Shown: positions 4,752 to 40,399 of the stretch, piece by piece | How positions within the stretch are numbered: position 1 is the first letter of the stretch | Layout: each line of letters opens with the position of its first letter | From: Patescibacteria group bacterium | GTDB lineage: Bacteria > Patescibacteriota > Minisyncoccia > UBA6257 > JAKLIH01 | Direction of reading: 5' to 3' | DNA: 44,612 bases | Assembly (NCBI GenBank): GCA_022705625.1 | Contig: JAKJEE010000002.1 | Location: 1 to 44,612 of the forward strand | Position numbers and translations under genes: made by a program | The notes under the pieces: model-generated | What the model was told of the DNA's origin: nothing | The model's database searches: none | Seen by the model: the letters and a program-made list of their open reading frames with translations, nothing else

Positions 4752-5006
4752 TAGAAAATTATAAAAATTTTATGCAAAACATAAGAAAAATCAAATGTAA
4801 AAAGTTAAAAGTTAAAATCAAAGTTCAAAAATAAATACAAAACTTCTATAAAACGATTCCTCCTTCTATCGGTTTTTAACAAAGCAATCATTAATAAATA
4901 AATTTGCTACAACAATACATATAAAAATTATATATTCTAAACCTTAAATCTATCACGGATACGAATTACCGCTCGTCACTAATCGGTGACGAGCGGTTAA
5001 ACACAT

Positions 5007-5288
5007 TCATGTCGCAGACGAATCGGTGACATCGTCAGTTGGTGGTGGAAATGAATCAAGCGAACCGTCGTTGTCTTTAGTGGTCGGGGTATCGTCAGTA
5101 TAAAGTTCATACTCACCGAGTAATTCTTCCCAACTGCCAAACGATTCTGGAAAAATATACTTGGTTAATTTTGCCATCCAATTGGCAACATGCTGATTGA
5201 TGGTGTTTATCAATTTCTCATCATCGGTTTGGACGGTAATACAAATTGGGAGATGATCGGGATTGCTAATCTTAAAAACTCGTTTCAT
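5007..5288 (-). CDS. Hypothetical 93-aa protein with an acidic, Pro/Thr-rich tail (cassette gene).
   Basis: It has an ATG with a GGGGG Shine-Dalgarno-like run upstream. It is GC-richer than its flanks. Both Trp codons are TGG. It ends in TGA, followed by the hairpin at 4968-4997. Confidence 0.5.
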   Translation of the reverse strand: MKRVFKISNPDHLPICITVQTDDEKLINTINQHVANWMAKLTKYIFPESFGSWEELLGEYELYTDDTPTTKDNDGSLDSFPPPTDDVTDSSAT

Positions 5289-5398
5289 TTTTTTACCCCC
5301 TATATTAAATTTCTTTGTTTAAATTAACATAATATTGATTATCTGTCAAATAAAAACACCACTCAAAATTATGTTGATGAGCGGTGTTATTTGCGTCT

Positions 5399-5644
5399 TT
5401 AATTAATGCGGGGTCGCTGACTTAACGTCAGCTGATCTTCAAGACGGCGATTTTGTCTTTTGCTTTTGGTGATTTCTTTCTGAAGCTCACCTTTTTCGAT
5501 CTCTAAAATAACAATTGCTTTTTTTTGCTGTTCAATAATCGGCAAAAGTGCTTTGAAAGTGTAATCGGCGGCATTAACTGTGCCATCTTCAATTTCTTCT
5601 TTGAGTTTGTTGACGATCTTATCGATCTCTTTTGCATCTAACAA
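5399..5644 (-). CDS. Hypothetical 81-aa coiled-coil protein (cassette gene).
   Basis: An AGGAGG-type Shine-Dalgarno site is present. The ORF overlaps the upstream ORF by 7 nt and ends in TAA. Confidence 0.5.
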   Translation of the reverse strand: MLDAKEIDKIVNKLKEEIEDGTVNAADYTFKALLPIIEQQKKAIVILEIEKGELQKEITKSKRQNRRLEDQLTLSQRPRIN

Positions 5645-5841
5645 TTTTTGCCTCCTTTCTTGAGCCAGTTAAAAAATCGATACCACCAAAGTTCGTGCAC
5701 CTCAATAATTTGAAACGCACTGGTGGTTTTCTTTAAAACAGCGCAGGCTGGATTTGTAATCTCGCCGATAAATTCACAAGCGTGATCGCATCCCGGCCGA
5801 TGGCATATTAAAATCGCCTTTTTTACATTTCCTTCTTCCAT
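5638..5841 (-). CDS. Hypothetical 67-aa Cys/His-rich small protein (cassette gene).
   Basis: An AGGAGGAGG Shine-Dalgarno site lies directly upstream of the ATG. The motif CHRPGCDHAC..C is present. All three Trp codons are TGG. The stop is TAG. Confidence 0.5.
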   Translation of the reverse strand: MEEGNVKKAILICHRPGCDHACEFIGEITNPACAVLKKTTSAFQIIEVHELWWYRFFNWLKKGGKNC

Positions 5842-5912
5842 GCCTCCTCCTAATTAAATATTTAAATATTAATTTGCTGAATAAATATTACCACAAATAT
5901 ATTAATATGTCA

Positions 5913-5926
5913 AAGACACATGTCTT
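5913..5926. promoter_or_regulatory. Operator-like palindrome AAGACA-CA-TGTCTT in a divergent promoter region.
   Basis: It sits between the divergent ORFs 5638..5841 (-) and 5986..6243 (+). Confidence 0.35.
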
Positions 5927-5985
5927 GAAAATTGATTAAATTTGTGCTAAGGTTTTAAAAGCTGTTTAAAAAATAGGAGGATTAA

Positions 5986-6243
5986 ATGGGATTAATTAGT
6001 AGTAAAAGAGATGAACATGACAAATTTATCGATCAACAGATTCAAAAATGGATTAAACAAAAACTATCAAACGACGGTTTAATTCAAAATCGTTTGATTA
6101 TCTATTTGACTGGCTTGATCCATACTGGACACAAAAACTATGTCAAAGCGAAAATTGATGAAATTGTTCAACGCTTATCTAACAATGGTTTTGAAATAAA
6201 CCAATATCAGGAAGTGTTGAACCTAAAGAAAGAATGCGAATAG
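5986..6243 (+). CDS. Hypothetical 85-aa protein (cassette gene).
   Basis: An AGGAGG Shine-Dalgarno site lies 7 nt upstream of the ATG. The stop is TAG, followed by a bidirectional terminator. Confidence 0.55.
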   Translation: MGLISSKRDEHDKFIDQQIQKWIKQKLSNDGLIQNRLIIYLTGLIHTGHKNYVKAKIDEIVQRLSNNGFEINQYQEVLNLKKECE

Positions 6244-6245
6244 TC

Positions 6246-6280
6246 AAAAAAGCGTTTACAAAAAATGTAAACGCTTTTTC
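6246..6280. terminator. Bidirectional intrinsic terminator between 5986..6243 and ppdK.
   Basis: The stem AGCGTTTACA/TGTAAACGCT is flanked by A and T runs. Confidence 0.7.
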
Positions 6281-6310
6281 AACTATATAATTTTTATTAA
6301 ATATAAAAAT

Positions 6311-8983
6311 TTAAAGTTTTTCTTCGATCACCGCTTGAGCCGCTGCTAATTTAGCAACCGGCACACGATAGGGTGAGCAAGAAACATAGGTGAGACCGAG
6401 TTTATGACAAAATTTTACACTTTCGGGATCGCCACCGTGTTCACCACAAATACCAATCTTTAAATCTTTTTTTACTTTTCGGCCCAGCGTTACGCCCATG
6501 GCCACTAATTTACCAATACCCTTTTGATCAAGCGTTTGGAATGGATCATTATCTAAAATCTTTTTATTTAAATAAATTTTAATAAATTTACCGGCATCGT
6601 CTCGAGAAAAACCCATGCCCATTTGAGTTAAATCATTGGTACCAAATGAAAAGAAATCGGCTTCTTTGGCAATTTCGTCAGCTGTTAAAGCGGCGCGAGG
6701 CACTTCAATCATGGTGCCAATTTTATAATCAAGTTTGACTTTATATTCTTTTAATATTTCTTCAGCAATTCTAATCGTTAGATTTTTCTGATCAATTAAT
6801 TCTTTGACATTACCAACGAGTGGAATCATAATTTCGGGAATAACTTTAATTTTTTCTTTTTTATATAATTCGCAAGCGGCTGACATAATCGCTCGAACTT
6901 GCATTTCGGTAATTTCGGAATAAGTTATACCTAAACGACAACCACGATGACCAAGCATTGGATTTTGTTCATGAAGTTCTTGGGATTTTTTCATAATCTT
7001 TTCAACTGGAATATCAATCGTGGCGGCTAATTCTTTAGCGGCCTCGTTGGTTTTTGGCAAAAACTCATGAAGAGGTGGGTCTAATGTTCGGATAGTTACA
7101 GGAAAGCCCTTCATAGTTTTAAATAAACCATAAAAATCTTCTTTTTGGAATGGTAAAAGTTTATTTAAAGCTTTGCGACGTTCTTGTTCAGTATCAGCCA
7201 AAATCATTTCTTGCATATAAGGCAATCTTTGGGAATCAAAAAACATATGCTCAGTTCGACAAAGACCAATGCCTTCGGCACCAAATTGATTGGCAACTTT
7301 GGCATCTCGAGGAACATCAGCGTTCGCTCTAACTTTTAGTTTAGCAATATTATCGGCTCATTTCATAAAAGTTTTAAATTCACCTTCTATTTCCGGCATA
7401 ATGGTATCAGCTTTACCTAAGATTACATTGCCATTATTACCGTCAATGGTAATATAGTCGCCTTCTTTGATAATATATTTTCCTTCATCATTGTTAGCAG
7501 TAAAGCATTTTTTGATCATATCAATTTTAATGTCTTCGCAACCAACCACGGCACATTTACCCATACCCCGAGCTACAACAGCCGCATGCGACGTCATACC
7601 ACCTCGAGCAGTCAAAACCCCTTGAGCAACGTTCATACCATTAATATCATCGGGCGATGTTTCATCACGAACCAAAATCACTTTCTCGCCTGATTCTGAT
7701 CAAGCCACCGCTTCATCAGGATCAAATACGACTTTGCCAGTACCAGCCCCAGGCGAAGCAGGAAGTCCTTTGGCAATAATTTCTATTTTGGCTTTAGAAT
7801 CAACTACTGGATGAAGCAGTTGATTAATTTGATTAGGGTCAATACGCATTAAGGCCTCATTAACAGTAATAAGTTTTTCATTAACCATATCAACAGCAAT
7901 TTTTATACCGGATCGAATACTTCTTTTACCACTACGAGTTTGGAGCATATACAAAATATCATTTTCAATTGTAAATTCAAAATCTTGCATATCTTTATAG
8001 TGCTTTTCGAGATTAGTCGTGACTTCAACTAATTGCTTAAATACTTTTGGCATATCCTTTTTAAGATTAATGATTGGTTGGGGGGTTCTCACGCCAGCCA
8101 CGACATCTTCACCTTGAGCATTAATTAAATATTCTCCATAAAATTCTTTTTTGCCAGTAGAAGGGTTACGAGTAAAACCAACTCCCGTTGCACAATTATC
8201 ACCCATATTGCCAAAAACCATAGCTTGAACATTAACAGCCGTGCCTAAATTATCAGGAATTTTATTAATTTGGCGATAAGTGATGGCGCGAGGATTATTC
8301 CAACTTTTAAAAACCGCATCGCGAGCCATAGCTAATTGAGTTAAAACATCTTGAGGAAAATCTTTGCCAATTTTAGCTTTGACTAACTTTTTATATTTAT
8401 CGATTAAATCTTTTAAATCAATATAAGAAACTTCATAATCATATTTTATCTTTTTGGCATCTTTTAATTTATGCAAAAATTCTTCAAATTCCGATTTATC
8501 AATACCAAGCACAACATCAGAAAACATCATTATAAATCGGCGATAGGAATCATAGGCAAAACGCGGATTATTTGATTGACTCGATAAAGCTTCAACAGTA
8601 ATATCGTTTAATCCTAAATTTAAAATTGTATCCATCATCCCTGGCATTGAAAATTTTGAACCAGAGCGCACTGAAACTAAAAGCGGATTTTTATTATCAC
8701 CAAATTTTTTACCACTAGCTTTTTCCAATTTACTAATCGCTTGCTCAAATTGATTTTGAAAATCAATGGGTAATTTTTTGTTATGACGATAATAATAATT
8801 GCAAACTTGAGTAACGATTGTAAAACCGGGTGGAACCGGAACACCAATTTTGGTCATTTCAGCCAGTCCAGCCCCTTTACCACCTAACAATTCTTTCATC
8901 GAACCATTACCGTCGGCTTTGCCATTTTGAAAGCTGTAAATATATTTTTCAACCTTAGTCGTCTTCACCTTTTTTGTGGTCAT
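6311..8983 (-). CDS. ppdK: Pyruvate, phosphate dikinase (890 aa), with two in-frame TGA=Trp at 7358 and 7700.
   Basis: The three ORF-track pieces are in the same frame. Motifs present: [16 protein letters not shown] (phospho-His loop), [10 protein letters not shown] and [13 protein letters not shown]. Confidence 0.95.
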
Positions 8984-9132: not shown

Positions 9133-9161
9133 TTGACATAATTTATATAATATGGTACAAT
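9133..9161 (+). promoter_or_regulatory. Sigma70-type promoter TTGACA-17-TACAAT.
   Basis: The hexamers lie at 9133-9138 and 9156-9161, about 30 nt upstream of the 9193 ATG. Confidence 0.55.
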
Positions 9162-9192: not shown

Positions 9193-9771
9193 ATGAAATA
9201 CATTATTGTTTTGTGTCAAGGCATCTCGACCAGTGGCGAAGTGTCCCCTCAAACCAAACAACTTATTCGATTTGTTTTGGATAAGGGAATGTCTACACAA
9301 ATAGATGTTGGAAAAATTATTGTTTCTGGCGGATACAGAGACAAAAATGGCAATATCGAAGCTGATACGGCTAAAAAGTATTTGCGACTTTGTCATGCTG
9401 CTATGGTTGATCCACAATGTGTCACTACCATATTTTTTATGGACAGCTTTATTTTCGAAAGAAGCTCGTCTTTCAAAAAAGGCGGTAATATCTCAAATTT
9501 AGTTGAGAGCCGCAAGATAATTCAAGCAGAGTTGGGTTTAGGTGATGAAATCATTATCATTACCAGTAAACCGTGCGCTTTCCGAACTATGTGGGCAGCC
9601 AGACGAGTATTCCCCGAACAAAAAATCAAAATTATCGGTCAAAAAATGATTTATGGTAACAATGTTCAATTCCGAAACAGCAATGAATTGATTTTTTGGA
9701 TCTGGAATTTCATACTCACTATTGCCACCATTGTGTATTTGTTTTTATCTCCGATCCAAAATGAAAAATGA
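9193..9771 (+). CDS. DUF218 (YdcF/ElyC-like) family protein, 192 aa. Under table 4 it would read on to the TAA at 9808-9810.
   Basis: The SGGYRD..EADTAKKYL pattern fits DUF218. An AAGGAG Shine-Dalgarno site is present. All three Trp codons are TGG. It ends in TGA, followed by a terminator hairpin. Confidence 0.7.
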   Translation: MKYIIVLCQGISTSGEVSPQTKQLIRFVLDKGMSTQIDVGKIIVSGGYRDKNGNIEADTAKKYLRLCHAAMVDPQCVTTIFFMDSFIFERSSSFKKGGNISNLVESRKIIQAELGLGDEIIIITSKPCAFRTMWAARRVFPEQKIKIIGQKMIYGNNVQFRNSNELIFWIWNFILTIATIVYLFLSPIQNEK

Positions 9772-9828: not shown

Positions 9829-9877
9829 TTTTGATTTTTGATTTTCACTTTTGACATTTGACTTTTGAGATTTGACT
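9829..9877. repeat. Degenerate heptad array, about 7 units of TTTTGAC-like sequence.
   Basis: The sequence reads ttttgat ttttgat tttcac ttttgac atttgac ttttgag atttgac. It lies in the convergent gap just past the smc stop. Confidence 0.7.
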
Positions 9878-12187: not shown

Positions 12188-12197
12188 GTTAAGAATT

Positions 12198-12225
12198 CAA
12201 AAGTCAAAAGTCAAAAGTCAAAAAT
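12198..12225. repeat. Heptad microsatellite (AAAAGTC) x3-4, abutting the smc start codon.
   Basis: On the minus strand it reads TTGACTTTTGACTTTTGACTTTTG, 10 nt upstream of the ATG at 12187. Confidence 0.75.
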
Positions 12226-14077: not shown

Positions 14078-14180
14078 ATTAATTCGATTTAACAGTGATA
14101 TTGTATCATAAAAAATGATGTTTTACAAGAGCTAACGCTACCCTAACAATCCTAACATCCCAAATTATCCCCGCTGCGCT

Positions 14181-16056: not shown

Positions 16057-18210
16057 TTAATTATATTTTTCAACCATTAAAAGATTGTGGCGATTGGGCA
16101 ATAAGCTTCAAATATATTCGGTTATAAACGGAATAAACGGATGAAGCATTTTAAGATTATTTTCCAAAATCTTTAAGAGTACATATTGAGCTTGAGTTTT
16201 GTTTTGATTATTTTTAATATCTTGTTTCAAATCTTCAATAATTTTATCAGCAAAAGTAAACCAGAAATATTTATATAGTAGCGTGCTAGCGCCAGTTAAA
16301 TTTAATTTATCAAAAGCTTTTTGATATTTTTTTACGATTTCGTTATTATTGTCTAAATATTTTTGGTATTTGCCGTCGAGAGCAACGGTTTGAAAATCAA
16401 AATCGGCAATATTCATTAAAACAAACTTGGAAACATTTCAAACTTTATTCACAAAATTGCGGGCACCAATAACTTTATCATCAGAAAAAGCTAAATCATC
16501 CCCAATTTTTGTGCCGTAGAGCATTGATCAACGCAAAACATCGGCCCCATATTGATCACAAATAGTCAGCGGGTCAATGGCATTACCCTTGGATTTAGAC
16601 ATCTTTTGATGATTTTTGTCACGAACAATACCGTGAAGCAACACTTGTTTAAACGGAACATGATTAGTTTTGTATAAGCTCATCATAATCATACGCGATA
16701 CTCAGAAAAAGAGTATATCATACCCGGTCTCCATCACATTGGTTGGAAAATACATTTCAAAATCGTTTTTTAAATTTAATTTTTGATCTTTAATGTTTGA
16801 TTTTGAACTACTTGACGATAGGAGAGTGGCAAATGGTCATTGGCTTGAAGAAAATCAAGTATCGAAAACATCTTGATCTTTTTCTCAACCTTCACCTGGA
16901 CATTCTTTTTGAATTTTTATACTCTCGCCTTTAAATCAAGCTGGAATAGGAATACCTCAATAAATTTGACGAGAAATATTTCAATCTTTCAATTCTTTCA
17001 TTCAATGAAAGAAAGTTTTTTCAAAGCGTTTAGGAATAATTTGAACATCGCCTTTTTTAACGGCTGCCACGCCTAAATCACGTAATGATTTTTTTGTGTC
17101 ATTGATTGGTTTAGTCATAGCCACAAATCATTGCGGAATAACTAATGGTTCGATTGGAGTATTACATTTATAGCAAACGGAAACATTATGCTTATAGGGC
17201 TCTTGTTTGACGAAGGAACCTTGGTCGGTTAAAATTTTGATGGCTTCTTCTCTCGCAACTTTTGGTTTAAGACCAGCTAATGGCCCAGCATTATTATTCA
17301 ATTTTCCATCAAGATCAATAATCGATCTAAAACCAAGATTATTTTTTTGGCCAATCTCAAAATCAACTGGATCGTGGTTGGGAGTTATTTTGAGAGCACC
17401 GGTGCCGAATTCAATATCAACACCTTCATCAGCGACAACAACGATTTCTCGATTGGTAATTGGTTCAATAACTTTTTTACCAATTCAAGTTTTATATCTT
17501 TTATCTTGAGGGTTAACGGCTATAGCCAAATCGCCAGGAATAGTTTCAGGGCGAGTAGTGGCTACGGTTAAAAAATCATCACTGTCAATTGATTTATATT
17601 TTAGATAGTATAGAAAACTGTTTTCTTCTATATATTGGGTTTCTAAATCAGATAGGGCTGTTCGATGTTTTGGGCAATAATTAACAATGCGATTGCCACG
17701 ATAAATCAAGCCATCATTATACATTTGTTCAAAAGTATCATAAACAATATCGACAATTTTTGAATCAAGAGTGAAGGTTTCACGACTTCAGTCACATGAA
17801 CTACCTAAACGCTTAATTTGTTCGTTCATATGTTTTTTGTTTTCTTGAGTAAAATTTCAAACTTCATTATAGAAATCTTGCCTTTCCATTTGAAAGCGAG
17901 ATCTGCCTTCTTTTTCTAATTTTTTTTCATACACGACTTGCGTTTCAAAACCAGCATGATCGGATCCAGGAAGTCATAAAGTTTTTTTACCTTGCATTCG
18001 TTGATATCTAATAATCGCATCTTCAATGCTCATAACTAAACCATGACCTAAATGTAAACTACCATTAGCATTGGTTGGTGGCATAATAATACAAAACGGC
18101 TCTTGATTTTCTTTAGGCAAATTATCGGGATTAAAAAAACCGGACTTTTCTCAAGTTTGATAAATATTTTCTTCTACGTTTTTATGATCATAGGCTTTGG
18201 GTAAATCCAT
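16057..18210 (-). CDS. valS: Valine--tRNA ligase, short form (717 aa, no C-terminal coiled coil), with many in-frame TGA=Trp.
   Basis: Motifs present: [14 protein letters not shown] (HIGH), [37 protein letters not shown] and [13 protein letters not shown] translated the whole gene by eye. Only parts were checked codon by codon. Confidence 0.88.
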
Positions 18211-18302: not shown

Positions 18303-19007
18303 TCATTTAAAGGATTTTTTCAAGACTATTGCCGAAGCTGATTCTGGTATACTGTTATAACTACCTATCGACTTGACATAAATAAAGTTCTCTAAAGGTT
18401 GGCCGAACCTATCGGTAGCAGACAATATATTTTCCATGATTAAAAATCGCACATTGGAATCGGAGAATAAGTTAATTGGGTTATATGAAACAAGGAGTTT
18501 TTCGCCAAAGGGCTGGTTAGTATATTGACGCCGGAAAACAATTATTTCATCAATACTTAATTCCCTAAGGCCAAAACTATCAGCTAATTCTTTAAGCTCT
18601 TCCTTCCTTGGGGTTGTTGTTCCAAAGAAAGTTTTAAAATCCATTTTGAACAAAAGCAACTTATTTTCTTGGTCACTTTTGTTATTACTTACATGGTGTT
18701 CTAAAAACTCCCTCATTAGAAAGTCTGCAATAAACATGTCGTCATACGCAAAATAAGTTCGTGCATCACTATTATTCTGATGCAAACAACTTATTTCTCT
18801 TAACATCTCCGTGACCTGACTAGTATTGTAATCAAGCCTTAACCAAGGAACCTTGGCTAGAACTTGTTGTACAATAAGATTAGCATGGGCTTGTGAATTC
18901 ATAAACTGGAACCAATCTTCTTCATCACGTCCAACCGCTTCAAGACTTTTAATAATTAAATAGTTTACCCTTAAAAGCCTACCCAACACGTTAATAACTT
19001 TACTCAT
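18303..19007 (-). CDS. Hypothetical 234-aa protein (cassette gene) with no family I can recognise.
   Basis: A GGGAGG Shine-Dalgarno site is present. The ATG overlaps the stop of the small upstream ORF (ATGAGTAA). Both Trp codons are TGG and there is no internal TGA. It is GC-richer than its neighbours. Confidence 0.6.
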   Translation of the reverse strand: MSKVINVLGRLLRVNYLIIKSLEAVGRDEEDWFQFMNSQAHANLIVQQVLAKVPWLRLDYNTSQVTEMLREISCLHQNNSDARTYFAYDDMFIADFLMREFLEHHVSNNKSDQENKLLLFKMDFKTFFGTTTPRKEELKELADSFGLRELSIDEIIVFRRQYTNQPFGEKLLVSYNPINLFSDSNVRFLIMENILSATDRFGQPLENFIYVKSIGSYNSIPESASAIVLKKSFK

Positions 19008-19104
19008 TTTTTCCTCCCACCTTTCCTCCTATATCAATAGGCATCCAGGTATTTAAATAGTAGTCGCCGCCTGTCATAATATTATTTATGATTTCTTGCG
19101 CCAT
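19000..19104 (-). CDS. Possible 34-aa leader/partner peptide, translationally coupled to the 234-aa ORF.
   Basis: The ATG is at 19102-19104. The TAA overlaps the downstream ATG. The ORF-track M at 19209 is an alternative start that lies inside the promoter. Confidence 0.3.
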   Translation of the reverse strand: MAQEIINNIMTGGDYYLNTWMPIDIGGKVGGKNE

Positions 19105-19170
19105 TTTGGTAAGGATATTCCCAACCAAAATGGTGCAAGAAATACTTATTGTAAAAGATCTAATTAGTGG

Positions 19171-19533: not shown

Positions 19534-19538
19534 ACTCG

Positions 19539-21764: not shown

Positions 21765-21766
21765 TT

Positions 21767-27038: not shown

Positions 27039-27166
27039 TACCCACCTGTGGATAACTCTTTAATAATAATATGCCTTTTGCGCTTAATCTTAAAATAAAA
27101 CATTGATAAAATAAATATAGAAACTACCAAACCAAGGCATTCTTGGCCCTCATTTTGTAAATTGGC

Positions 27167-31689: not shown

Positions 31690-32163
31690 AAGTTAATTCT
31701 GTAATGGTATTTTAATCTATATAATAGCATATAATATTTTTTTTAAAAATACAACGCTTAGGCATTAAATTCTAATCTTCGCTGGGGTATATAACGTATT
31801 CTAAAAAAGCCATAAATTTGGGAATATAGATTAAGCACAAACTTAATTAATCGTTAAAATCCAAACTTATGATAGATAATAATATTATTACAGAGCAAAG
31901 GAATAGTCCTACGATATTTCTTAGACATAGCTGTTAAGCCCTTTCCCACACACAAAAGGATATGGCTAAGGCATTTGACAAAGATAGAACAACTAGCTAT
32001 CAAGAGGTTAAAATAAATAGAAATAATGAAAAATACCATAGCAACATAGCTAAGCCGAAAACTGAAGAAAGAAGAATAAAAATTTTCGATTTTGGTATTG
32101 AATGATTTTTATTTATGAAATTCAGTATGATTGTCGCTATATTTTTATTTTAATTTTTTATTT

Positions 32164-32751
32164 TTAAATATATAATCTGTGCTGGTTGATATAATCTATA
32201 ACTGGTTGAGGTGTTAGCCCGAAAATGCTCTTGTTTTTCTTTATTCTGACCCTAATGTCTGTTGAAGAAATATTGGTGGAAAGATTATCAATAAATGTAA
32301 AATTTTTTAGGCTATATGGTAAATTTTTTGGTATTTTGTTTCCCATTCTTTTTAATACTAAAAATTCGTAGTGTTTAATTAATTTTGTATAATCTATCCA
32401 TCCAGAAATATTTTTTAAATTGTCAGCACCAATAACAAAAAATAATTTATCTTGTTTGGCAATTTTCTTACTGAATTTATTTAATAGTTGGATTGTCCCC
32501 AAAAACTTTTTATTATAAATTTCATCTTTTTTAAGCAATACATTATCACTGTTATTAAAAAAATATTCTAATGCTAATTGGCACATTGCTAGCCGGTGTA
32601 TGGGGTCAATTAACGAATTCTTATCTGGCCTTAAGGGAGAAGGAACTACTCAAACACAATCAACTTTTTTAGAGTTTAAAACCTCGGCTATAGTAATAAG
32701 ATGGCCATATGTTATCGGGTTAAACCCTCCCCCTATAATTCCTATGTTCAT
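32164..32751 (-). CDS. nadD: Nicotinate-nucleotide adenylyltransferase NadD (195 aa), with one in-frame TGA.
   Basis: The N-terminus MNIGIIGGGFNPITYGH carries the (H/T)xGH motif. The SSTDIR motif is near the C-terminus. The frame was checked from 32581 to 32751. Confidence 0.88.
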
Positions 32752-32753
32752 TT

Positions 32754-34706
32754 TTAGTCTTTTAAAGTTTTAATTCATTCAAACACATCGGCATCACTTG
32801 GCATACGCCAATCACCACGAGGTGATAAGCTGACACTTCCAACCTTAGGTCCATCTGGCACGCAGTTTCTCTTAAATTGCTGAGAAAAAAATCTTTCATA
32901 AAACTTCCTGAGCCATTTCCTAATTATCTCTTGATTATATTTGCGATTGAAGGCAATATTAGCCAAAAACAAGATCTTATCCGGATGGCTACCATGTCTT
33001 AAGGTATGAAATAAAAAGAAATCATTTAATTCATATGGACCAATATCGTTTTCGGTAATCTGGGATATTTCTTCTTTGGGATTGACCGGCAAAAGCTCTG
33101 GGCTAATGGGAGTAGACAAGATACCTTCCAAAGCCGTCTTTGCTTCATTGGCTGAATTATTAGCAACTCATTTAACTAAAAAACTAACTAATGTTTTTGG
33201 AATACTACAATTAACATTATACATCGACATATGGTCCCCGTTAAAAGTGCATCAGCCTAAAGCTATCTCAGATAAATCGCCAGTACCTATAACTAAGCCA
33301 TTATGTTTATTAGCATAATTCATCAAATTTTGAGTCCTGGCTCTAGCCTGAACATTTTGATACGCAATGTCATGAATATTTTCATCTTGACCAATATCTT
33401 TAAATTGTTGTAGACAACTTGGCTTTATATCAATTTCTTTAATAGTACATCCTAGAGCTTTCATTAAGCTTACAGCATTGTCATATGTTTTATTGGTAGT
33501 ACCAAAACCAGGCATAGTGATAGCGATAATATTTTCTTTTGGAAGATTTAATAATTCTAATGTTTTATGGCAAACAAGTAAAGCTAAGGTTGAATCAAGC
33601 CCGCCGGAAACACCTATAATAACATTCTTTATGCCGGTATACTCTAATCTTTTTGCTAAGCCAGCTACCTGAATATTAAAAATCTCTGCACATCTTTTAT
33701 TAATAGTCTCTGGGTTTATTGGTATAAAAGGGCAAGGGTTGATTGTTCTGTCTAAAACTATCTTTTTATTGTTCAGTTTGTTAATTTCTTTAAAATCAAA
33801 ACTGACTGTTTGCACTTTAAATTGGCTAATACTATCATCATAAAGATCAGCAAAACTTTTGTTCACTAATCTGTCATTCTTTAAATTTAAAAGATCAATA
33901 TCAGCATAAATTATATTGTTTTCTCTTTGAAATCTTTTTGATCTGTTAAGTAAACTTCCATTTTCAGCAATAAGACAATCACCTCCAAAAACAACATCAC
34001 TGGTCGATTCAAATACCCCTGAAGAAGAATAAATATAAGCAGCAATAGCTCTAGCACTTTGTTGTAATACCAATTGCTCTCTATAATCACTTTTAGCAAT
34101 GAGTTCATTACTAGCAGATAAATTAAACAAAATCTCGGCTCCATTTATGGCTAAATAGGAGCTAGGCGGTATGGGCATTCATAAATCTTCGCAAATCTCT
34201 AAGGCAAATTTAAAATCTAAGTCCTTAACTTCGAAAACTAATTTACCAAAAGGAATTTCTTTGTTTAAGAATCTTACTTTATTTATTTGGTTAGAGATTT
34301 CGTTGCCTGAAGTGAACCATCTTTGTTCATAAAATTCTTTATAGTTAGGAAGAAACATTTTCGGAACAATCCCCAATATATCCCCTTTAAAAATTACAAC
34401 TCCGCAGTTGTATAATTTATCTCCTATAGTGATGGGCATACCTATATTTATAATTATAGGTAAGTTTTTTGTTTTTTCCAATAATGTGTTTAAGGCATCG
34501 TGGCTTGAAACAATTAAATTGTTTTGTAAAAATAAATCAGCGCAGGTATACCCTGTAAGACTAAGCTCTGGAAAACTAATCAGAATAGTGTTTTTAGCTT
34601 CTGCTTCCCTTACTATTTTTTCGATCTCTAATATATTATAGGAAGGATTAGCTATTTTAATTTTTGGAGTAGCTGAAGCTACTTTAATAAATCCATGATT
34701 ATACAT
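32754..34706 (-). CDS. nadE: Glutamine-dependent NAD+ synthetase NadE, long form (about 650 aa), with in-frame TGA=Trp at 34179, 33252, 33168 and 32775.
   Basis: It has an N-terminal CN-hydrolase domain (..EICEDL), GVSGGLDS (the ATP-PPase SGGxDS motif) and [18 protein letters not shown]. Read-through of the TGA at 32775 ends at a TAA 2 nt before the nadD ATG. Confidence 0.9.
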
Positions 34707-35370
34707 ATTTTTGATTTAATTTGATTATACATTTGTTATATCACAAATTTATATTTTATACAATTTTATTTCTCAAAATATTATTTAAAAATAATGCTTT
34801 GAGAAATAATGGTAATGTTTTCGTCTACTTCCAAAACTTTTAATTAACGCTAAGGTGCGATTTTGTTCTAGAAGCTTGGATATTTTTTAGAGTTTCTAAA
34901 AACTTTTAAGATAAAAAATTTCAAATCTTTTATATTTTAACTATAATAGTCAATGGTGTTAGTGTCCCTAAACAAAATGGTCTTGACAAAAGTTGGTGCG
35001 ATGTTAATACAACATATCGCTCTTTCTTCGCTAGATCACTCTAGCTCACGTTCGAATATCTTGGCATCAGCATTTTCTAATGCCGCCTCGTATAAACCCT
35101 GGCATCTATATCCTGAGTTTCTACTATTTTATAAAGATCCAAGAAAGCTTTTTTCGTACCTTCTGTGTCAAATTGAAGATTATGGTTTTCCTCTTTTTGC
35201 TTGGCTACTTACTGGCTGAGATTATTTATATTCTCCGTTGTCTTTACAATGGAGAACAACAATACTATTATGACTATTGCTATAGCCATTATTAACATAT
35301 TTTTTCTCATTTTTAATCTCTTTTTAGACAAAAATTTTATATATTTAAAGGTAATATGGATTCCCATTAG

Positions 35371-35404
35371 CTCAAGAAATTAAAATACTTTTTAATTTCT
35401 TGAG
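35371..35404. repeat. AT-rich perfect hairpin CTCAAGAAATTAAAA-tac-TTTTAATTTCTTGAG (copy 1).
   Basis: It is repeated at 36174-36207. The two copies bracket ORF 35684..36013. Confidence 0.8.
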
Positions 35405-35683
35405 AGATAGTGGGGAATAAAAATGACTGCATTTAAATTCCCCGTGGATGAGGTTTAACTCTTTGTCAATTCTATCAACCTTAAATAGAATTGAATGGGC
35501 TCTGCTTCCCCTCGGCTCACGTGTGTGATTTTTTATACTAGATCTCCCGTGATACAAACTAGTTACCCGTGCTTTTACCCCCATGGATTTTTAGGGGAAC
35601 CTAACAAAATTACTTTTGATAGAATATTTCGTTTCTATAGATCGGAGAATCTATAAAAAGACCGTGAAAGTATTTTTTTTCCT

Positions 35684-36013
35684 TTAGATAGGAATATCCA
35701 ATTTGGATACTTCCTCTTTTGCCTCTGAAATTCTTCTTTCAAATTCTTGTTGCTGCCGCAACGACTCGTTGAACCATTTACGCATTTTCCAGAGGTAATC
35801 AACTGCTTCCTCTAGAGTCAGGGGAATCCAACATGAAAAGTTGTTGCAAGGGCTTTGGTCGTAGTAGGAAGCGGAATAACCGCTTTCATTCTTTCTCACC
35901 CGCTGAGTCTTATTGTTGCACGGATGCGTTCCGAGCAACTCTTCTCCATTTTGCATAGTTGCAAGGTTTTCTCTTGCAACTGTCTTCGAACTGATCATCT
36001 TACTTATTAACAT
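35684..36013 (-). CDS. Hypothetical 109-aa protein (cassette gene).
   Basis: A GGAGGG Shine-Dalgarno site is present. Local GC is about 43-45%. All three Trp codons are TGG. The stop is TAA. Confidence 0.5.
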   Translation of the reverse strand: MLISKMISSKTVARENLATMQNGEELLGTHPCNNKTQRVRKNESGYSASYYDQSPCNNFSCWIPLTLEEAVDYLWKMRKWFNESLRQQQEFERRISEAKEEVSKLDIPI

Positions 36014-36173
36014 TTTACCCTCCTAGGTATCTGCTGCCTGCCACTTGGTCAGGACTTATCCAGATTATAAAACATTTTTTCCTCATATAGTTTTGCTGCT
36101 TCCAGCATATAAAAGTTAAAAGATTTAACTTCTATACGCTGAAAACATTATTTTTAAAGAACATTTCTACTTC

Positions 36174-36207
36174 CTCAAGAAATTAAAATACTTTTTAATT
36201 TTTTGAG
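36174..36207. repeat. AT-rich hairpin, copy 2.
   Basis: It is near-identical to 35371-35404. Confidence 0.8.
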
Positions 36208-36532
36208 AGAATATTTTTAAATTTTAAAGAACAAAATCTATGTGTTCAAGAATTTAATCTCTTACATTCTTGAAGTATAGGGAGGAGCTTTAAACTCTTT
36301 TTTTGTTTTTTCAACAAGCGCTCCTCCTTTTTACTTGTTGAAAATTTTTTCCCTAATTTCTTTTTTAAAGTAAGTTAGTTTAGGAAATACATACTTACTA
36401 ACTAGAAAGTTTTAGTCTTTTATCTTTCTAGGTTTTCCCTGAGTTCATCAGGACCCTCTTAGCTCTTGCTTTGGTTATATGACCGGTAGGTCAGCAAGTT
36501 CCCGCAGTCTGACGAGGGGTCTGCGGGGATCC

Positions 36533-36967
36533 TTAATTTCCAGTAGGAGTTGTGTGGTCCTCCTGGGACAAAATCCAAGTCTTGTCTTTATAAGAGACAT
36601 AAACTCGGTTTTGCCCAAGGGAAGTACCTACTGATGAAGCTATCTCATCCAATAAAGATTGAACTTCTTCATCAGGTAAGTTCCGTGCATAAAGCACGGA
36701 CACTTCTCCTTGGAAATTTGCTACTGGTTCAGAGGCTCCTTGAGCCTCTCCTTTTCCTTCTGACCAAGCATAAACTACTTGGCCGGGAAATACATTCCCG
36801 GTAAGGAAAGGAAGGCCTTTTGAAGCCCTTTCTTTCATCCATCCTTTTAAGAGGTCAACTGCCTCTTCAAAAGAATGAATTTTGCCAGTATCTCCATAAC
36901 CTTCTTGCAGACCGAAAGTTATGGAGAAAGGCCTTTTGACTCCTTCGGAGTCAAATATTTTTTTCAT
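36533..36967 (-). CDS. Hypothetical 144-aa protein (cassette gene).
   Basis: A perfect AGGAGG Shine-Dalgarno site lies 6 nt upstream. The 60-nt sample I counted is 43% GC. All three Trp codons are TGG. The stop is TAA, followed by the hairpin CCCGCAG..CTGCGGG. Confidence 0.6.
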   Translation of the reverse strand: MKKIFDSEGVKRPFSITFGLQEGYGDTGKIHSFEEAVDLLKGWMKERASKGLPFLTGNVFPGQVVYAWSEGKGEAQGASEPVANFQGEVSVLYARNLPDEEVQSLLDEIASSVGTSLGQNRVYVSYKDKTWILSQEDHTTPTGN

Positions 36968-37224
36968 CTTTGCCTCCTTTCAGACAAAAATTTCACACAA
37001 TTAGCGGGAGTGTGATTCCCATACTGCTTTTCAGCAGCCAAATTATAGTTTTTTTAAACTAAAACTTGGCTGCTGAAAAATATTTTTAAATTGCTTTTGG
37101 CCACAAACAATACTTGGTGATTGGCTGGGCGATCAAAATAATTTTAATTTAAATTAAAATTGCTTTGATCGCCGACCAAAGAGGTGAGTTAATCCTCTTT
37201 TCGACGTAAACATAATTTATATGT

Positions 37225-37362
37225 TTAGGTGTGGCCTTGATTTGAGCTGTCTTGCTCACGAATCAAAGAAATATAAATTGTTTGATCGTCTTCTTCAAAC
37301 AATACATATATTTTTTCCACGAGACGAAAAATTTTCATAAATGTGCGACTGCCGCCAGACAT
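37225..37362 (-). CDS. Possible 45-aa ORF (MSGGSRTFMKIFRLVEKIYVLFEEDDQTIYISLIRE..), perhaps a toxin-like fragment.
   Basis: It has an ATG at 37360-37362 and a TAA stop. It is short, has no clear Shine-Dalgarno site and has no family I can name. Confidence 0.2.
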   Translation of the reverse strand: MSGGSRTFMKIFRLVEKIYVLFEEDDQTIYISLIREQDSSNQGHT

Positions 37363-37419
37363 ATTCCGGTGACAGTTAAAAATCTTGGTTTGAAGATTTT
37401 TAACTGTCAAAAGAATTAA

Positions 37420-37889
37420 AAAAACTCCATTGCTTTAACCGCTAACCAGCAGATGAAAGAAAAGGAGTTTTCTTTGACTTTTATATGTTAAATATAAAAT
37501 TATCTGCCCGCTAATGCGGCTAAATTTAGCACCTTTCTATATAGTAATAGAAGGTTGCTGGATAACTATAACGAGTTAGTTCTCATAACTACATAAATAT
37601 AGTTTAGTTATCTCTCAGGATAATTATTAAATTGTTATTAAAGAACGAACAAATTGTATAAAAAGAAAAACCTCTTTCGTTTATTTCGCAAGACGTACGG
37701 AATAAAAGAAAAAGGGTTTGAGTATTCTTTTATCCGTCCGCAATTTGCGGCTGAGATTAGCACCTTATTATGTAAATAGGTTGCTGGATAGCTGTGACGG
37801 GTCAGTTCCCGTAACTATATATAAATATAGTTTTGCTATCGCTCTAGATAATATCTTTCTTTTGCTTAAGAACAATTTGATTTTGTTGT
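37420..37889 (-). ncRNA. Putative ~470-nt noncoding transcript carrying two tandem paralogous ~127-nt structured modules (37728-37853 and 37498-37625).
   Basis: A consensus promoter lies immediately upstream. The modules are about 70% identical and share the same helices. Compensatory changes are seen (GATAAC/GTTATC vs GATAGC/GCTATC, and ACGAG/CTCAT vs ACGGG/CCCGT). There is no ORF. A distal hairpin AAAACTCC..GGAGTTTTTTT lies at about 37421-37471. Confidence 0.5.
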
Positions 37890-37895
37890 AATTTT

Positions 37896-37924
37896 ATTAT
37901 ATCATATCTTTTCTGTTTTGTCAA
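37896..37924 (-). promoter_or_regulatory. Consensus promoter TTGACA-17-TGATATAAT driving the structured RNA.
   Basis: The hexamers lie at 37919-37924 and 37896-37901. The upstream block CACAAGTGGGTATTGACAAAA is shared with the promoter at 27033. Confidence 0.65.
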
Positions 37925-37981
37925 TACCCACTTGTGAAAAACTCGATTGAACTGCTTTATCCAAAATAAAAGCAACTAAAA

Positions 37982-39556
37982 TTAAACATTTTTATCTCTT
38001 AAATATTTATAGTTTTTTAAAACAAAGGCTATAGCTTCTTCTTTGGTCTTAATTGTGCCTTCCTGTTGTTTTTTAAAAACACTATTCAAAATAGTTTTAA
38101 AAAATGGACTTGATTTAAAACCAAGATTAATTAAATCGTTGCCTTGAATTAATTTTTCTAAATGTCCAGAAAAAACATCTAACTCAACTGCCATTTTGGT
38201 TAATTCTTTTATTTTTTCAAGATTTACAATATTTTGATCATTTAGTTGGCCACGTCCAGAATAGTCAGCTTCCATAACTAAAACTAATTCTTTAATAGTA
38301 GCTGGTTTAATAGCATTAGAAAGTTTTTTTACAAATTTTTCAGAAATTTTATCAACACCGATAAGAGCATCATGATATTTAACGAGTTGCAAAATGATTG
38401 GAATATTTTTTTTCGGAATATTTAATTTCTCTAAAAAAGTGATAGCAAGTGGAATTGACGCTTGGGTATGACCATAAGAAGTTATTTTTTCACCTTCGAT
38501 TTTAGTAGTGGTGGCCTTGCCAAAATCATGGCATAAAACACTTAATAAAATTATGATTTGGTGTTCTTTAGAAATTTTTTCTCGCTGGCAAATATTTTTG
38601 GCTTGGTCTAACGCTTGCAATGTATGCTCGAAAACATCACCTTCGGGATGATATTTTTTTCATTGGGCTAATCCGATTAAATTATATATTTCTGGATGAA
38701 GCTTTTCTAATATTTTTAACTCTTTAGCGACTCTTAACCCATAACTTGGTTGATCAGCTTGCAATAACATTTTAATTCATTCTTCGCCAATGCGAGAATT
38801 ACTAATATTTGATAAATCTATATTTTGACAAAGATTTTTGGTTTTTTCATCAACTCTAAATTTTAAAACCGCTGCAAATCTCATAGCTCTTAATACTCTT
38901 AGGGGATCATCGGCAAATTTCCGTGCATCAACACATCTTAAGGTTTTATTTAAAATATCGTTTACACCTCCTTGTGCATCAAGTATCTCTCCAGAAAATG
39001 GGTCAATAGCGATGGCATTACAGGTAAAATCACGACGTGATGAAGCTTCTTCAATTGATAAATTAGGAAAAAAAGAAGTAGCAAAATCTTTGTGCCCTAC
39101 ACCTTTTTTTGATTCTTTGCGCGGCAAAGCAATATCAATACCTGGTTCAAGTTTATAGACTCCAAAACTTTTGCCAACTAAACCTAAAGAATCGTCAGTA
39201 TTTTTAGTTAAAACTTCTTCAACTTGTTGAGGAGTAATATTAAATATTTCCAGATCAATATCTTTGAAAGAAATCTCTTTTTTAAGTCCGAACTTGTATA
39301 ATATCAAATCTCTAACAAAGCCACCAATTAAAACTGGCTGAGCTTTATGTTTTTTAAGCAATAAACAAATTTCAATGACTTTTTTAACAACCTCTCTTTC
39401 GGATGGATTTTTAATATTAGAAAAAATTTTAACTAAACTTTCCACTTTTTTTGAGACGTTTGGCAAATTTTTATTTTTTGCTTGTTTTTTTTCTTTTGCA
39501 TTAATCTTGTTGTTATTGACATCTTTTTGGTGGATTTGATTTTTTGGTTTTAGCAT
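37982..39556 (-). CDS. cca: CCA-adding enzyme / tRNA nucleotidyltransferase with an HD domain (524 aa). In-frame TGA at 38777 and 38660. It has a Lys/Asn-rich N-terminal extension.
   Basis: Motifs present: VLIGGFVRD, ..RRDFTCNA.. and W-KKYHPEGDVFEHT (HD). The join 38621-38779 was checked codon by codon. The ORF-track start at 39640 overlaps tRNA-Ala, so I use the ATG at 39554-39556. Confidence 0.88.
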
Positions 39557-39631
39557 ATTTATTTTTGAAAAACTATTATAATGCTTTAACTTATTTTTTA
39601 TATATCGCTGTCCCGATTTTATAAGACGGTG

Positions 39632-39702
39632 TGGAGACACGGAGAATTGAACTCCGAATTGGTCATTGCGAACGACCTGTTATACCGTTTAACTATGTCC
39701 CC
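39632..39702 (-). tRNA. tRNA-Ala (anticodon CGC) with the G3:U70 identity pair.
   Basis: Acceptor GGGGACA/TGTCTCC with G3-T70, anticodon loop TTCGCAA, T arm CGGAG-TTCAATT-CTCCG, discriminator A. Confidence 0.88.
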
Positions 39703-39892
39703 ATAAAATTGTGAATCCACGATTTATTTTAATTTTTTAATTTTACAATCATTCCACAGCTTTTTCATTTTTTTAATTTGCAGTTATCTTTTTTATAGTT
39801 AACGAATTAGTAACAAAAATCTAAAAATTAATAAATTGGACGTTTATCTATATTCCCTAACTATTCACTTTGTGATTATAGCAAAAAATTCA

Positions 39893-39938
39893 AAAAATAA
39901 AAATACCCCTATAATACCTTGATCGAGGATCATAGGGG
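39893..39938 (-). terminator. Intrinsic terminator of ORF 39958..40239.
   Basis: The stem CCCCTAT/ATAGGGG is followed by a long T-run on the minus strand. Confidence 0.65.
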
Positions 39939-39957
39939 TAATTGAATTGTCATTTTT

Positions 39958-40239
39958 TTATTTCCCTTCTTCAGCGGTGGTAATAACAACGGTGACTATA
40001 AATGCTCTAATTTCTTTATGGGTCTCAACTAATTTTTCGATGCATTTTAAATTGGTTTTATTACGGGCGACAATGTGGTAATTAACAATGGATTTACCGT
40101 GGTGAGAATTTCTAATTTTGCCGATCACAAACAACCAATCATAATAATCGATTGAGACAGTCGGCTTAACGGATAATTCTTGGACAAGATAACTAATAAC
40201 CTGTGACAACTCATTTAAATCAATTTGGGTGATAACCAT
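39958..40239 (-). CDS. Hypothetical 93-aa protein (cassette gene).
   Basis: A perfect AGGAGGTGA Shine-Dalgarno site is present. The only Trp codon is TGG. The stop is TAA. An extended -10 TGATATAAT lies upstream. Confidence 0.55.
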   Translation of the reverse strand: MVITQIDLNELSQVISYLVQELSVKPTVSIDYYDWLFVIGKIRNSHHGKSIVNYHIVARNKTNLKCIEKLVETHKEIRAFIVTVVITTAEEGK

Positions 40240-40399
40240 TTTTCACCTCCTTTTTTTATAATTTTCTAAGTATAATTATATCATACTTTTTATAAAAATA
40301 AAATGTTTACAAATAATGCGTTGCTAATAGAAAGTCGAAATTTCTAATTAGTAAATTCCACAGCGGTAACTAATATCTTTACAAAATTTTAAAAACCCC

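Follow-up and report, generated by a model that had tools for sequence, protein, structure and literature searches.

The 44.6-kb stretch of DNA described here (44,612 nucleotides; the window in what follows) carries two classes of genes written in different translational dialects. Its core genes lack Shine-Dalgarno (SD) sites and spell most of their Trp codons TGA, while a set of small accessory genes, grouped in cassettes between the core genes, is mostly led by strong SD sites and spells Trp only TGG. The window has a GC content of 31.9%. If TGA is treated as a stop, open reading frames (ORFs) of at least 80 aa cover 61% of it, and if TGA is treated as sense, long ORFs tile it. The code is read as code 4 (UGA = Trp) because the in-frame TGA codons (X) of valyl-tRNA synthetase (ValRS) sit at universally conserved Trp positions, as in DXNISRQIYXGIPIPAXF and XLPGSDHAG (motif DWxISRQxWWGxxIPAW). 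The same Trp motifs rule out UGA = Gly (code 25), the reassignment known from other recoded candidate-phyla-radiation (CPR) bacteria.

A ValRS query returned nine syntenic Patescibacteria metagenome-assembled genomes at 67-83% identity, one of which, RA.bin82, has the accession prefix JAKLIH01, the name of a GTDB family. The valS gene is 80-82% identical to that of RA.bin82 and the gene order is colinear, which identifies the window, by sequence and synteny, as part of the chromosome of a Patescibacterium of family JAKLIH01 (order UBA6257, class Minisyncoccia). With ppdK as query, a search that covered the JAKLIH01 genomes reached 80 unrelated phyla and no close relative, the best match (69% identical) being another Patescibacterium. 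Reassignment of UGA to Trp in JAKLIH01 was already published in 2026 (PMC13092985; bioRxiv 10.64898/2026.05.24.727570). According to these papers, a tRNA(UCA) is found in two of four JAKLIH01 genomes, beside an ordinary tRNA-Trp(CCA) (PMC13092985), release factor 2 (RF2) is absent, and conserved genes have no UGA stops (both papers). The anti-SD motif has been reported missing in about half of Parcubacteria (PMC9297842). The tRNA genes within the window are those for tRNA-Glu, tRNA-His and tRNA-Ala only; the window contains neither tRNA-Trp(UCA) nor prfB, the gene for RF2. Loci and contigs used for comparison are denoted by L-numbers, among them L093 (RA.bin82), L105 (a same-strain contig from an activated-sludge metagenome) and L097 (JGI 3300067033).

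Two sets of genes were scored: 24 core genes, exemplified by valS in the first line below, and the ten small ORFs that an earlier note on this DNA had singled out as standard-code-like cassettes (c1-c5, c6, c6b and c7-c9). GC3 denotes the GC content of third codon positions.

16057..18210, minus strand: valS, an example of the core dialect, with 17 TGA and 1 TGG, no SD site, GC3 0.24
5007..5288, minus strand: c1, 93 aa, ending at TGA (code-4 reading to 4950), 2 TGG and no internal TGA, GC3 0.40
5399..5644, minus strand: c2, 81 aa, whose TTG start overlaps the c3 end, SD AAGGAGG at 6 nt, no Trp, GC3 0.37
5638..5841, minus strand: c3, 67 aa, Cys-rich, SD AGGAGGAGG at 4 nt, 3 TGG and 0 TGA, GC3 0.40
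5986..6243, plus strand: c4, 85 aa, SD AGGAGG at 5 nt, 1 TGG, GC3 0.31
9193..9771, plus strand: c5, 192 aa, ending at TGA (code-4 reading to 9810), SD AAGGAG, promoter TTGACA-17-TACAAT at 9133-9161
18303..19007, minus strand: c6, 234 aa, orphan family, ending at TGA (code-4 reading to 18174, overlapping the valS start)
19000..19104: c6b, treated with c6 below
35684..36013, minus strand: c7, 109 aa, SD AGGAGG at 5 nt, 3 TGG and 0 TGA, GC3 0.47, the highest of the set
36533..36967, minus strand: c8, 144 aa, with a predicted phage-type S-adenosylmethionine (SAM) lyase fold, SD AAGGAGG at 5 nt, 3 TGG
39958..40239, minus strand: c9, 93 aa, SD AAGGAGGT at 5 nt, 1 TGG

An SD site was scored as at least 5 nt of TAAGGAGGTGAT at positions -20 to -3. 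By this measure, no core gene has a site (0/24), core GC3 is 0.15-0.28 and every core stop is TAA or TAG. The valS gene has 19 TGA codons in its longest ORF and 17 after trimming to the conserved start. Eight of the ten small ORFs carry an SD site with a spacing of 4-9 nt, and seven of these eight contain GGAGG (8/10 versus 0/24, Fisher p=2.5e-6); the exceptions are c1, which has only GGGGGT, and c6b, which has none. Their GC3 of 0.31-0.47 does not overlap the core range. The core genes contain 82 TGA and 21 TGG Trp codons, as against 0 TGA and 19 TGG in the cassettes (Fisher p=1.6e-11). The picture drawn in the earlier note is borne out in most of these respects: the core genes are SD-less, AT-rich and rich in TGA, down to the 11 TGA codons counted in the helicase, nearly all small ORFs have strong SD sites, and the 19 TGG codons recur in our count. 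Its contrast in GC content (43-50% versus 22%) was overstated, as whole-ORF GC is 0.31-0.42 in the cassettes and 0.25-0.37 in the core; the clean separation lies in GC3.

That no small ORF contains an internal TGA is partly circular, since c1, c5 and c6 are delimited by TGA and a code-4 reading adds 19, 13 and 43 codons to them, respectively. The difference holds when these tails are counted as coding (4 TGA and 20 TGG, p=1.2e-8). A rule blind to TGA, which picks ORFs by GGAGG and a start codon alone, returns exactly c2, c3, c4, c6, c7, c8 and c9, and these seven GGAGG-led ORFs of at least 60 aa compare with 0.07 expected by chance (300 local shuffles, maximum 1). Codons ending in G and in C are both raised in the cassettes (AGG, for example, from 0.04 to 0.19). 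The G-ending share of the other two-fold NNR families rises from about 0.14 in the core to about 0.25 in the cassettes, while for Trp it rises from 0.20 to 1.00. The Trp shift far exceeds that of the other families, and TGA is therefore avoided specifically in the cassettes. Several cassettes also have promoters and terminators of their own, as had been proposed: promoters precede c3 (TTGACA-17-TAATAT), c5 and island 4 (37896-37924), and terminator hairpins lie 3' of c2 and c4. The existence of two gene classes is confirmed as real and statistically strong.

The SD and GC3 pattern is not a simple effect of expression level, because it is missing from native genes of the highly expressed type: rpmF, hsp20 and nusB of the window, like clpP, tig and nusA of L009, lack SD sites and have a low GC3 (0.17-0.27). 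Trp codon choice leaves a weak hint of such an effect, in that clpP and nusA of L009 lean to TGG (4 TGG, 1 TGA). The hsp20 gene uses TGA in most relatives, and the large surface protein encoded in the window has TGA at 11 of 11 Trp codons, with TGA kept in relatives; neither gene has an SD site.

The same division recurs across the family, in relatives that were assembled independently. The native cofD, CYTH-PRK and cca of L095 are SD-less, with a GC3 of 0.20-0.23 and only TGA, while the ORFs of 93, 99, 259, 143 and 72 aa located between them have AGGAG or GGAGG sites, a GC3 of 0.29-0.44, and 10 TGG and 0 TGA codons. The SD-led class is also present in L005, L008, L093, L100-L104, L108 and L109. 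In an automated tally of 11 family loci that admitted only GGAGG, SD-led ORFs contain 24 TGG and 2 TGA codons as against 204 TGG and 553 TGA in other ORFs (p=1e-11), and both of the TGA codons sit in one 70-aa antisense ORF that is probably spurious. A looser scan that allowed AGGAG gave 47 TGG and 20 TGA and is noisy from chance motifs inside long core genes; in one false case, what looked like an SD-led piece of ThiI in L008 proved to be a site within a native gene of 383 aa. Counted by hand, the SD-led ORFs of relatives contain about 35 TGG and no internal TGA.

The slots between core genes are hypervariable. The gap between tsaD and valS, which spans 0.7-4.8 kb, holds a native thiI in three relatives, c6 in the window and several SD-led ORFs in L008, whose islands include an AbiEii toxin and a Cu_amine_oxidN1 protein in the SD-led class. 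Over 9.9 kb, L095 matches L093 at 99.97% identity, and the two diverge 26 nt past the end of a repeat element, after which L095 has a c8 homologue and L093 an unrelated SD-led ORF of 147 aa. The comparison of presence and absence that the earlier note had called for accordingly finds slot content that differs between relatives and cassettes exchanged between near-identical strains, and its concern that the junctions might be chimeric is answered by the recurrence of the core-cassette junctions in independent JGI, ENA, NCBI and Logan assemblies. The cassettes are self-contained units of promoter, structured leader, SD site, ORF and hairpin, placed in hypervariable slots between syntenic core genes.

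The islands and the RNA features that accompany the cassettes are as follows; R1 is a covariance model of the c6 leader.

4576..6310: island 1, between hisS and ppdK, with c3-c2 (overlapping, coupled), c1 and the divergent c4
19004..19155, minus strand: 5' leader RNA of c6, conserved and structured, about 130-150 nt, containing the 'ORF' 19000..19104
34707..37981, minus strand: island 4, between cca and nadE, in the order promoter, two SAM riboswitches, small ORF, c8, repeat, c7, repeat
36953..37090, minus strand: leader hairpin of c8, of an architecture akin to the c6 leader (R1 31 bits, E about 1e-6 to 2e-8)
36111..36210, minus strand: inter-cassette repeat of about 105 nt, composed of the hairpin CTCAAGAAATTAAA..TTTAATTTCTTGAG, then TAAATGGAATTGTTCTTTAAAA, then the hairpin TTTTCAGC..GCTGAAAA; second copy at 35324-35415
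37727-37854 and 37497-37626, minus strand: tandem SAM-I aptamers, a terminator-like hairpin after each; promoter TTGACA-17-TATAAT at 37896-37924

Members of the c6 family are 226-247 aa long and end in ..IILTNK followed by a stop; the TGA of c6 comes at this family-typical length, and other alleles end there in TAA or TAG. Members located upstream of valS in code-4 genomes have SD TAAGGAGGA and TGG only. Every family member examined is TGG-only and has an SD site that is either TAAGGAGGA-like or a variant rich in purines (the DNA was checked for five), at protein identities of 28-49%. Eight of the genomic contexts are explicitly code 4, and the contig of L107, on which c6 lies beside greA and not valS, is too short to judge. 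The closest relative of the window is L108, which is colinear at 84-88% nucleotide identity and in which valS, rnc and hsp20 are 92%, 96% and 98% identical, respectively (over all relatives, valS is 67-92% identical with conserved synteny). The two c6 alleles are only 42% identical, with nucleotide homology stopping at 18278 and resuming at 18899, inside the c6 start and leader. A structural model of c6 (pLDDT 82.5) has no fold match in PDB or BFVD, and the protein is predicted to adopt a new fold.

The leader of c6 is a candidate for a new cis-regulatory RNA. By alignment and RNAalifold, it has three helices, P1 of 21 bp, P2 of 8 bp and P3, the last of which abuts the SD site, with compensatory changes at ten pairs. 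The leader precedes every gene of the c6 family (the window, L100, L101, L102, L104, L107, L108, L109 and L008), and the R1 model finds it at loci outside the training set, in L108 and L109 (124.7 bits) and in L107 (104 bits). Weaker matches of R1 are the leader of c8 and that of c7 (36073-36158, 19 bits). No Rfam family matches the c6 leader at gathering score, and a search of genome contigs for a 17-nt leader motif returned almost only random matches. One of the ten ORFs of the earlier note, c6b, is probably part of this leader RNA and not a gene. As judged from its predicted structure, pairing beside the SD site would make sense only if SD-dependent initiation operates in the host cells, and it argues for such initiation.

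In island 1, a bidirectional terminator lies 3' of c4 and ppdK, a terminator hairpin 3' of c2 and a promoter 5' of c3. The island is identical in L105, which is of the same strain and hence uninformative on selection for c1-c4. A 12-bp GC-rich hairpin begins 11 nt past the TGA of c1 and is conserved in L106, whose c1 homologue is 43% identical; this homologue retains an SD site (AAAGGAGGT), the C-terminal 25 aa and the TGA with its hairpin, the middle of the protein is replaced, and the shared 5' flank includes the upstream terminator and promoter. The c2 ORF is a candidate gene by its SD site and length, and it has no homologue beyond the same-strain contig. Viral relatives of c4 were looked for and none was found. 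As a separate observation, ppdK differs from that of L105 at 25 mostly synonymous positions within 340 nt (6629-6971), while hisS and island 1 are identical; this cluster looks like a recombination tract. The c5 gene has a weak DUF218 match and five orthologues, 81-100% identical and all in JAKLIH01-type DNA, in which TGA occupies the identical C-terminal position in 5/5 and 12 of 12 internal Trp codons are TGG. A syntenic c9 orthologue (L093, L095) shares 46% of its residues with c9, the same SD site and a conserved TGG, next to cofD and cca that are 90% and 61% identical. Pfam, PHROGs, PADLOC and NCBIfam searches of the ten ORFs gave only the weak DUF218 match of c5, a weak CorA match of c6 and two marginal PADLOC matches.

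Island 4 has an orthologous array in L095, in which five repeat elements separate ORFs of 99, 259, 143 (c8) and 72 aa, all SD-led and TGG only. A profile of the repeat (nhmmer) scores E=4.5e-19 at 36111..36210 and E=1.5e-12 at 35324-35415; there are two clear copies in the window, five in L095 and four in L093, and in island 4 they are internal and not att-like flanks. The idea that the GC-rich region at 35.5-37 kb represents non-coding RNA genes was rejected, as Rfam finds only the SAM aptamers there, protein homologues exist for both c7 and c8, and the c8 protein folds. For c7, two homologues were found, 99% and 59% identical and both on short JGI contigs.

The c8 protein is predicted to have a phage SAM-lyase fold. 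Its AF2 model (pLDDT 84.5) matches the phage SAM lyase 6zm9 as the top Foldseek hit (E=1.6e-5, TM 0.65/0.71, probability 1.00), followed among the top matches by 9lqd and the SAM-AMP lyase 9gad, and its sequence has no Pfam, NCBIfam or PDB match. Tyr66, Glu80 and Gln119 are invariant in the family alignment. Homologues occur in a JAKLIH01 relative (59% identical), in L098, a standard-code genome of 36% GC (51-54%), and in L097, a standard-code contig of 64% GC (47%). In L098, the gene has its own TTGACA/TATAGT promoter and an AAGGAG site, and its neighbours are SD-less. L097 itself is 35.7 kb long with about 20 ORFs, one of which has a recorded Pfam match (Pribosyltran), and ten ORFs tested gave no PHROG match; this unclassified element may be a vehicle of the c8 family.

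Upstream of c8, the SAM-I aptamer (RF00162) at 37727-37854 scores 45.4 bits and passes the gathering score of 44.4, and the one at 37497-37626 falls just under it with 41.4 bits. Both have an enlarged P2 region, and no SAM aptamer is present in the orthologous island of L095. The c8 gene lies about 530 nt downstream of the tandem riboswitches, with a 45-aa ORF and more hairpins between, and riboswitch control of c8 is for this reason no more than a possibility.

These comparisons indicate that the cassette dialect is maintained. Of 38 comparisons of a window TGG with its counterpart in core orthologues, 32 show TGA on the side of the relative, even at 80-97% protein identity. In the syntenic orthologues of c5 (81%), c8 (59%) and c9 (46%), TGG stands in both genomes at 6 of 6 conserved Trp positions, and c5, c6, c8 and c9 retain their syntenic position, their SD sites and TGG in related code-4 genomes. 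TGG and SD sites are kept where the core has already randomised TGG and TGA, and therefore the spelling is maintained, either by selection or by continual re-supply. Recent acquisition alone, to judge from these alignments, does not explain the dialect. Of what the earlier note proposed, namely recently acquired or mobile DNA or else a distinct expression class, hypervariability, exchange, readability under the standard code and a distinct expression class all stand, while recency is insufficient. Four features may be taken as signs of a standard-code source: the TGA at the natural ORF end of c1, c5 and c6, the raised share of G-ending and C-ending codons, the nearly equal distance of c8 from its in-family and its standard-code copies (with its own promoter and SD site in L098), and cassette content of the phage or defence type.

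The two classes, their recurrence in the family, the swapping of cassettes and the upkeep of TGG and SD sites are shown by these data. As to why the dialect is kept, we infer, tentatively and with something short of even confidence, that the cassettes form a horizontally exchanged, code-neutral pool of accessory genes. Core genes initiate without SD sites, and the small ORFs constitute the flexible part of the genome, where recombination in conserved flanks or in repeat elements replaces cassettes even between near-identical strains. Cassette spelling reads alike under the standard code and code 4, with Trp always TGG, and an ORF that ends at TGA gains only a short tail in a code-4 host. The pool would also be under selection in, or replenished from, cells or phages that treat UGA as a stop codon and use SD sites for initiation, and only UGA-free alleles would persist in it, because a code-4 host can read standard-code genes and the reverse fails. 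A precedent is provided by the standard-code, TGA-avoiding phages predicted for code-25 CPR bacteria (PMC10746230).

Several observations weigh against a shared pool. Among 5.8 billion clusters and 1.84 billion representatives searched, c1, c5, c6, c7 and c9 occur only in JAKLIH01-type code-4 chromosomal contexts, and a standard-code reservoir is documented for c8 only. Searches of the cassette ORFs with Pfam, NCBIfam and PHROG found no integrase, transposase or phage hallmark gene adjoining any island, and no viral relatives were found in IMG/VR (c2, c4, c7, c9 and the c8 alignment), by INPHARED tblastn (c8) or in PHROGs. Finally, SD sites and a leader RNA that are conserved in code-4 genomes at 28-49% protein identity argue that these signals work in this host.

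The last point favours an alternative that we regard as possible if somewhat unlikely, in which the cassettes are a native, SD-dependent expression class. The anti-SD tail would be functional, and a minority of leader-regulated accessory genes would use strong SD sites, which structured leaders and riboswitches may be able to switch. A scarce or recent tRNA-Trp(UCA) would slow the decoding of UGA, which would be tolerated in weakly initiated core genes and would cause ribosome queues on SD-led mRNAs. In its favour are the persistence of SD motif, spacing and leader structure across code-4 genomes whose cassette proteins have diverged to 28-49% identity, the TGG at the six conserved cassette Trp positions and throughout the c6 family, and the restriction of cassette families to the lineage. 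The lean of clpP and nusA to TGG points in the same direction, as does the report of tRNA(UCA) in just two of four JAKLIH01 genomes (PMC13092985), and the window's C34 tRNA, Ala-CGC, makes dedicated tRNAs for G-ending codons possible. This alternative is opposed by hsp20 and the surface protein, which use TGA, also in most or all relatives examined, and are not SD-led, and by the GC3 of highly-expressed-type native genes, which is not raised. The NNR families rise far less than Trp. It also leaves unaccounted for the conserved TGA at the exact natural ORF end of c1 and c5, and the c8 homologues in standard-code DNA.

In a further, unlikely reading, the UGA-free, SD-led cassettes would be a purpose-built, code-robust accessory class, possibly for defence or counter-defence, giving two translational regimes in one cell. 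Such genes may need to remain translatable when UGA decoding is lost or manipulated, as in strains without tRNA-Trp(UCA) or under attack by a phage that supplies a release factor or degrades this tRNA; alternatively, UGA may truly terminate in cassette mRNAs. The SAM-lyase-like protein, the AbiEii toxin and hypervariable alleles under diversifying selection are hints in this direction.

Plain recent transfer from standard-code, SD-using donors, with cassettes too young to have drifted and no selection, is quite unlikely. It would explain the raised GC3, the TGG-only Trp codons, the occasional TGA ends, the variable content and the two domain-bearing proteins (Cu_amine_oxidN1 and AbiEii) in the L008 islands. 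Yet several diverged relatives have c5, c6, c8 and c9 in identical slots and with an unaltered dialect, at divergences where core Trp codons are already randomised, and this synteny already points to cassette families that predate the split of the JAKLIH01 species. Moreover, c8 and c9 have a GC3 near 0.30, close to that of the host, and yet retain TGG throughout, and no donors were identified for most families.

It is very improbable that UGA is context-dependent, that is, Trp in the core and a terminator at the ends of cassette mRNAs through a hairpin or through stalling and rescue. The TGA codons of c1, c5 and c6 do lie only at or past the ends of their homologues, and the conserved hairpin 11 nt past the TGA of c1 would suit this. 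However, RF2 is absent and conserved genes lack UGA stops according to the published work (PMC13092985; bioRxiv 10.64898/2026.05.24.727570), read-through is a harmless alternative because the next in-frame TAA or TAG is reached after 13-43 codons at most, and most cassettes terminate in TAA or TAG. An artefact, whether a chimera of two organisms or chance non-coding ORFs, is effectively refuted for the class as a whole: c2, c3 and c4 have homologues only in the same strain and c6b is probably non-coding, but the junctions are shared by independent assemblies, the number of GGAGG-led ORFs is far beyond chance, c6 and c8 give confident folds (pLDDT 82-85), and c5, c6, c7, c8 and c9 have protein-level homologues.

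The recoding of this lineage is itself known, and the two-class structure of the genome was not found in the papers that the literature searches returned. The JAKLIH01 papers concern the same lineage, with UGA at conserved Trp positions and a TGA-rich core; they derive the code from conserved orthogroups, from the tRNA(UCA) and from the lack of RF2, and the passages returned by term searches describe no SD-led, UGA-free class. The phages predicted for code-25 Gracilibacteria and Absconditabacteria (Liu et al., 2023; PMC10746230) are similar in that in-frame TGA is avoided and their genes are readable under either code. In contrast, the cassettes described here are small, chromosomal and in fixed slots, the host uses code 4, no phage hallmark genes were found, and three of ten ORFs (c1, c5 and c6) end at TGA, a stop that is mostly avoided by those phages.

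Genomic islands share with the cassettes their atypical composition and codons, strain-variable content, cargo of the defence or phage type and adjacency to tRNA genes (island 3 contains tRNA-Glu and island 5 abuts tRNA-Ala). The present islands differ in being only 1-3 kb long with no integrase or transposase found, in that several cassettes are syntenic across species and yet keep the foreign dialect, and in that the marker is the meaning of a codon and not composition alone. Island 4 resembles an integron array in its one-directional small SD-led ORFs, the hairpin repeats of about 105 nt between them and swapping at these repeats. However, neither an IntI integrase nor an attI site was found, and searches of the window and of L093 and L095 gave no recombinase; the neighbours of island 4 are cca and nadE, its elements contain promoter-like hexamers, and the repeats are at most putative counterparts of attC with its R-box and L-box architecture. 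An integron reading was not adopted, as no integrase was found. Bacteroidia also have SD-poor genomes with a few genes led by strong canonical SD sites, such as rpsU of Flavobacterium, which is autoregulated, and their anti-SD tail is present but occluded. There, the SD-led genes are native regulators, whereas here they are orphan accessory genes that also avoid UGA. As for c8, the model shares its fold with the Svi3-3 SAM lyase (6ZM9) and with SAM-AMP lyases of CRISPR systems (9GAD); unlike these phage and CRISPR enzymes, c8 is chromosomal, has no detectable sequence similarity to them and lies close to SAM riboswitches.

Codon reassignment is often seen as a firewall against phages and horizontal transfer. 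JAKLIH01 offers a natural view of the flexible genome in a recently recoded bacterium, in which the core has drifted about 80% into the new spelling and swappable cassettes remain readable under the old code with a different initiation signal. The direction and extent of gene flow over a code boundary and the decoding cost of a new codon become testable questions in such a system, and the combination of TGG-only Trp codons and SD sites provides a marker of accessory genes in JAKLIH01 genomes. There is also a practical consequence for annotation, as the core genes are broken up under translation table 11, and cassette proteins such as c1, c5 and c6 acquire false tails under table 4. The candidate leader RNA and the SAM-lyase-like gene downstream of tandem SAM riboswitches are by-products of the analysis.

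Rearrangement in this region extends beyond the cassettes. A native block of helicase, a 171-aa ORF, nadD and nadE (27167-34706) is missing from this position in L093 and L007; the distance to the surface-protein gene is about 3.6 kb for cca in L093 and about 3.2 kb for cofD in L007 (compare 26838-41317 in the window). Large native blocks are therefore rearranged too. The surface-protein gene (24435-26837, minus strand; 11 TGA, 0 TGG) contains a perfect 108-nt tandem duplication at 25833-26039, a repeated Cys-containing module. In recG (3-2465, minus strand), a PD-(D/E)XK nuclease domain (Pfam PDDEXK_3, E=6e-23, residues 451-555; about 790-1105) lies in frame between the DEAD and Helicase_C domains.

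Repeats are frequent in the intergenic regions. Between rpmF and hsp20 (14180-14569), a 94-nt tandem repeat with runs of the heptad GTCAAAT is present in 4.1 copies that are 98% identical, and inverted TTTTGAC/TCAAAAG heptad runs flank smc on either side (9829-9877 and 12197-12223), with similar intergenic repeats in relatives. Island 3 has 115-nt tandem repeats around tRNA-Glu and a 52-nt exact repeat (19238-19591, 19706-19993), with the hairpin CCACACTAACTAAAGTTAGTGTGG in each. One GC-rich hairpin (GGAACGCCGCCTTGCGGCGTTTC-like) occurs in opposite orientation, 90% complementary, in two unrelated intergenic regions (4718-4747 and 24161-24190). Between c9 and cofD (40478-40983), nested direct repeats contain the perfect palindrome TGTCACGCGCGTGACA beside TTGACA boxes; these palindrome repeats are kept in L004, L007, L009, L093 and L095 and are operator-like in look.

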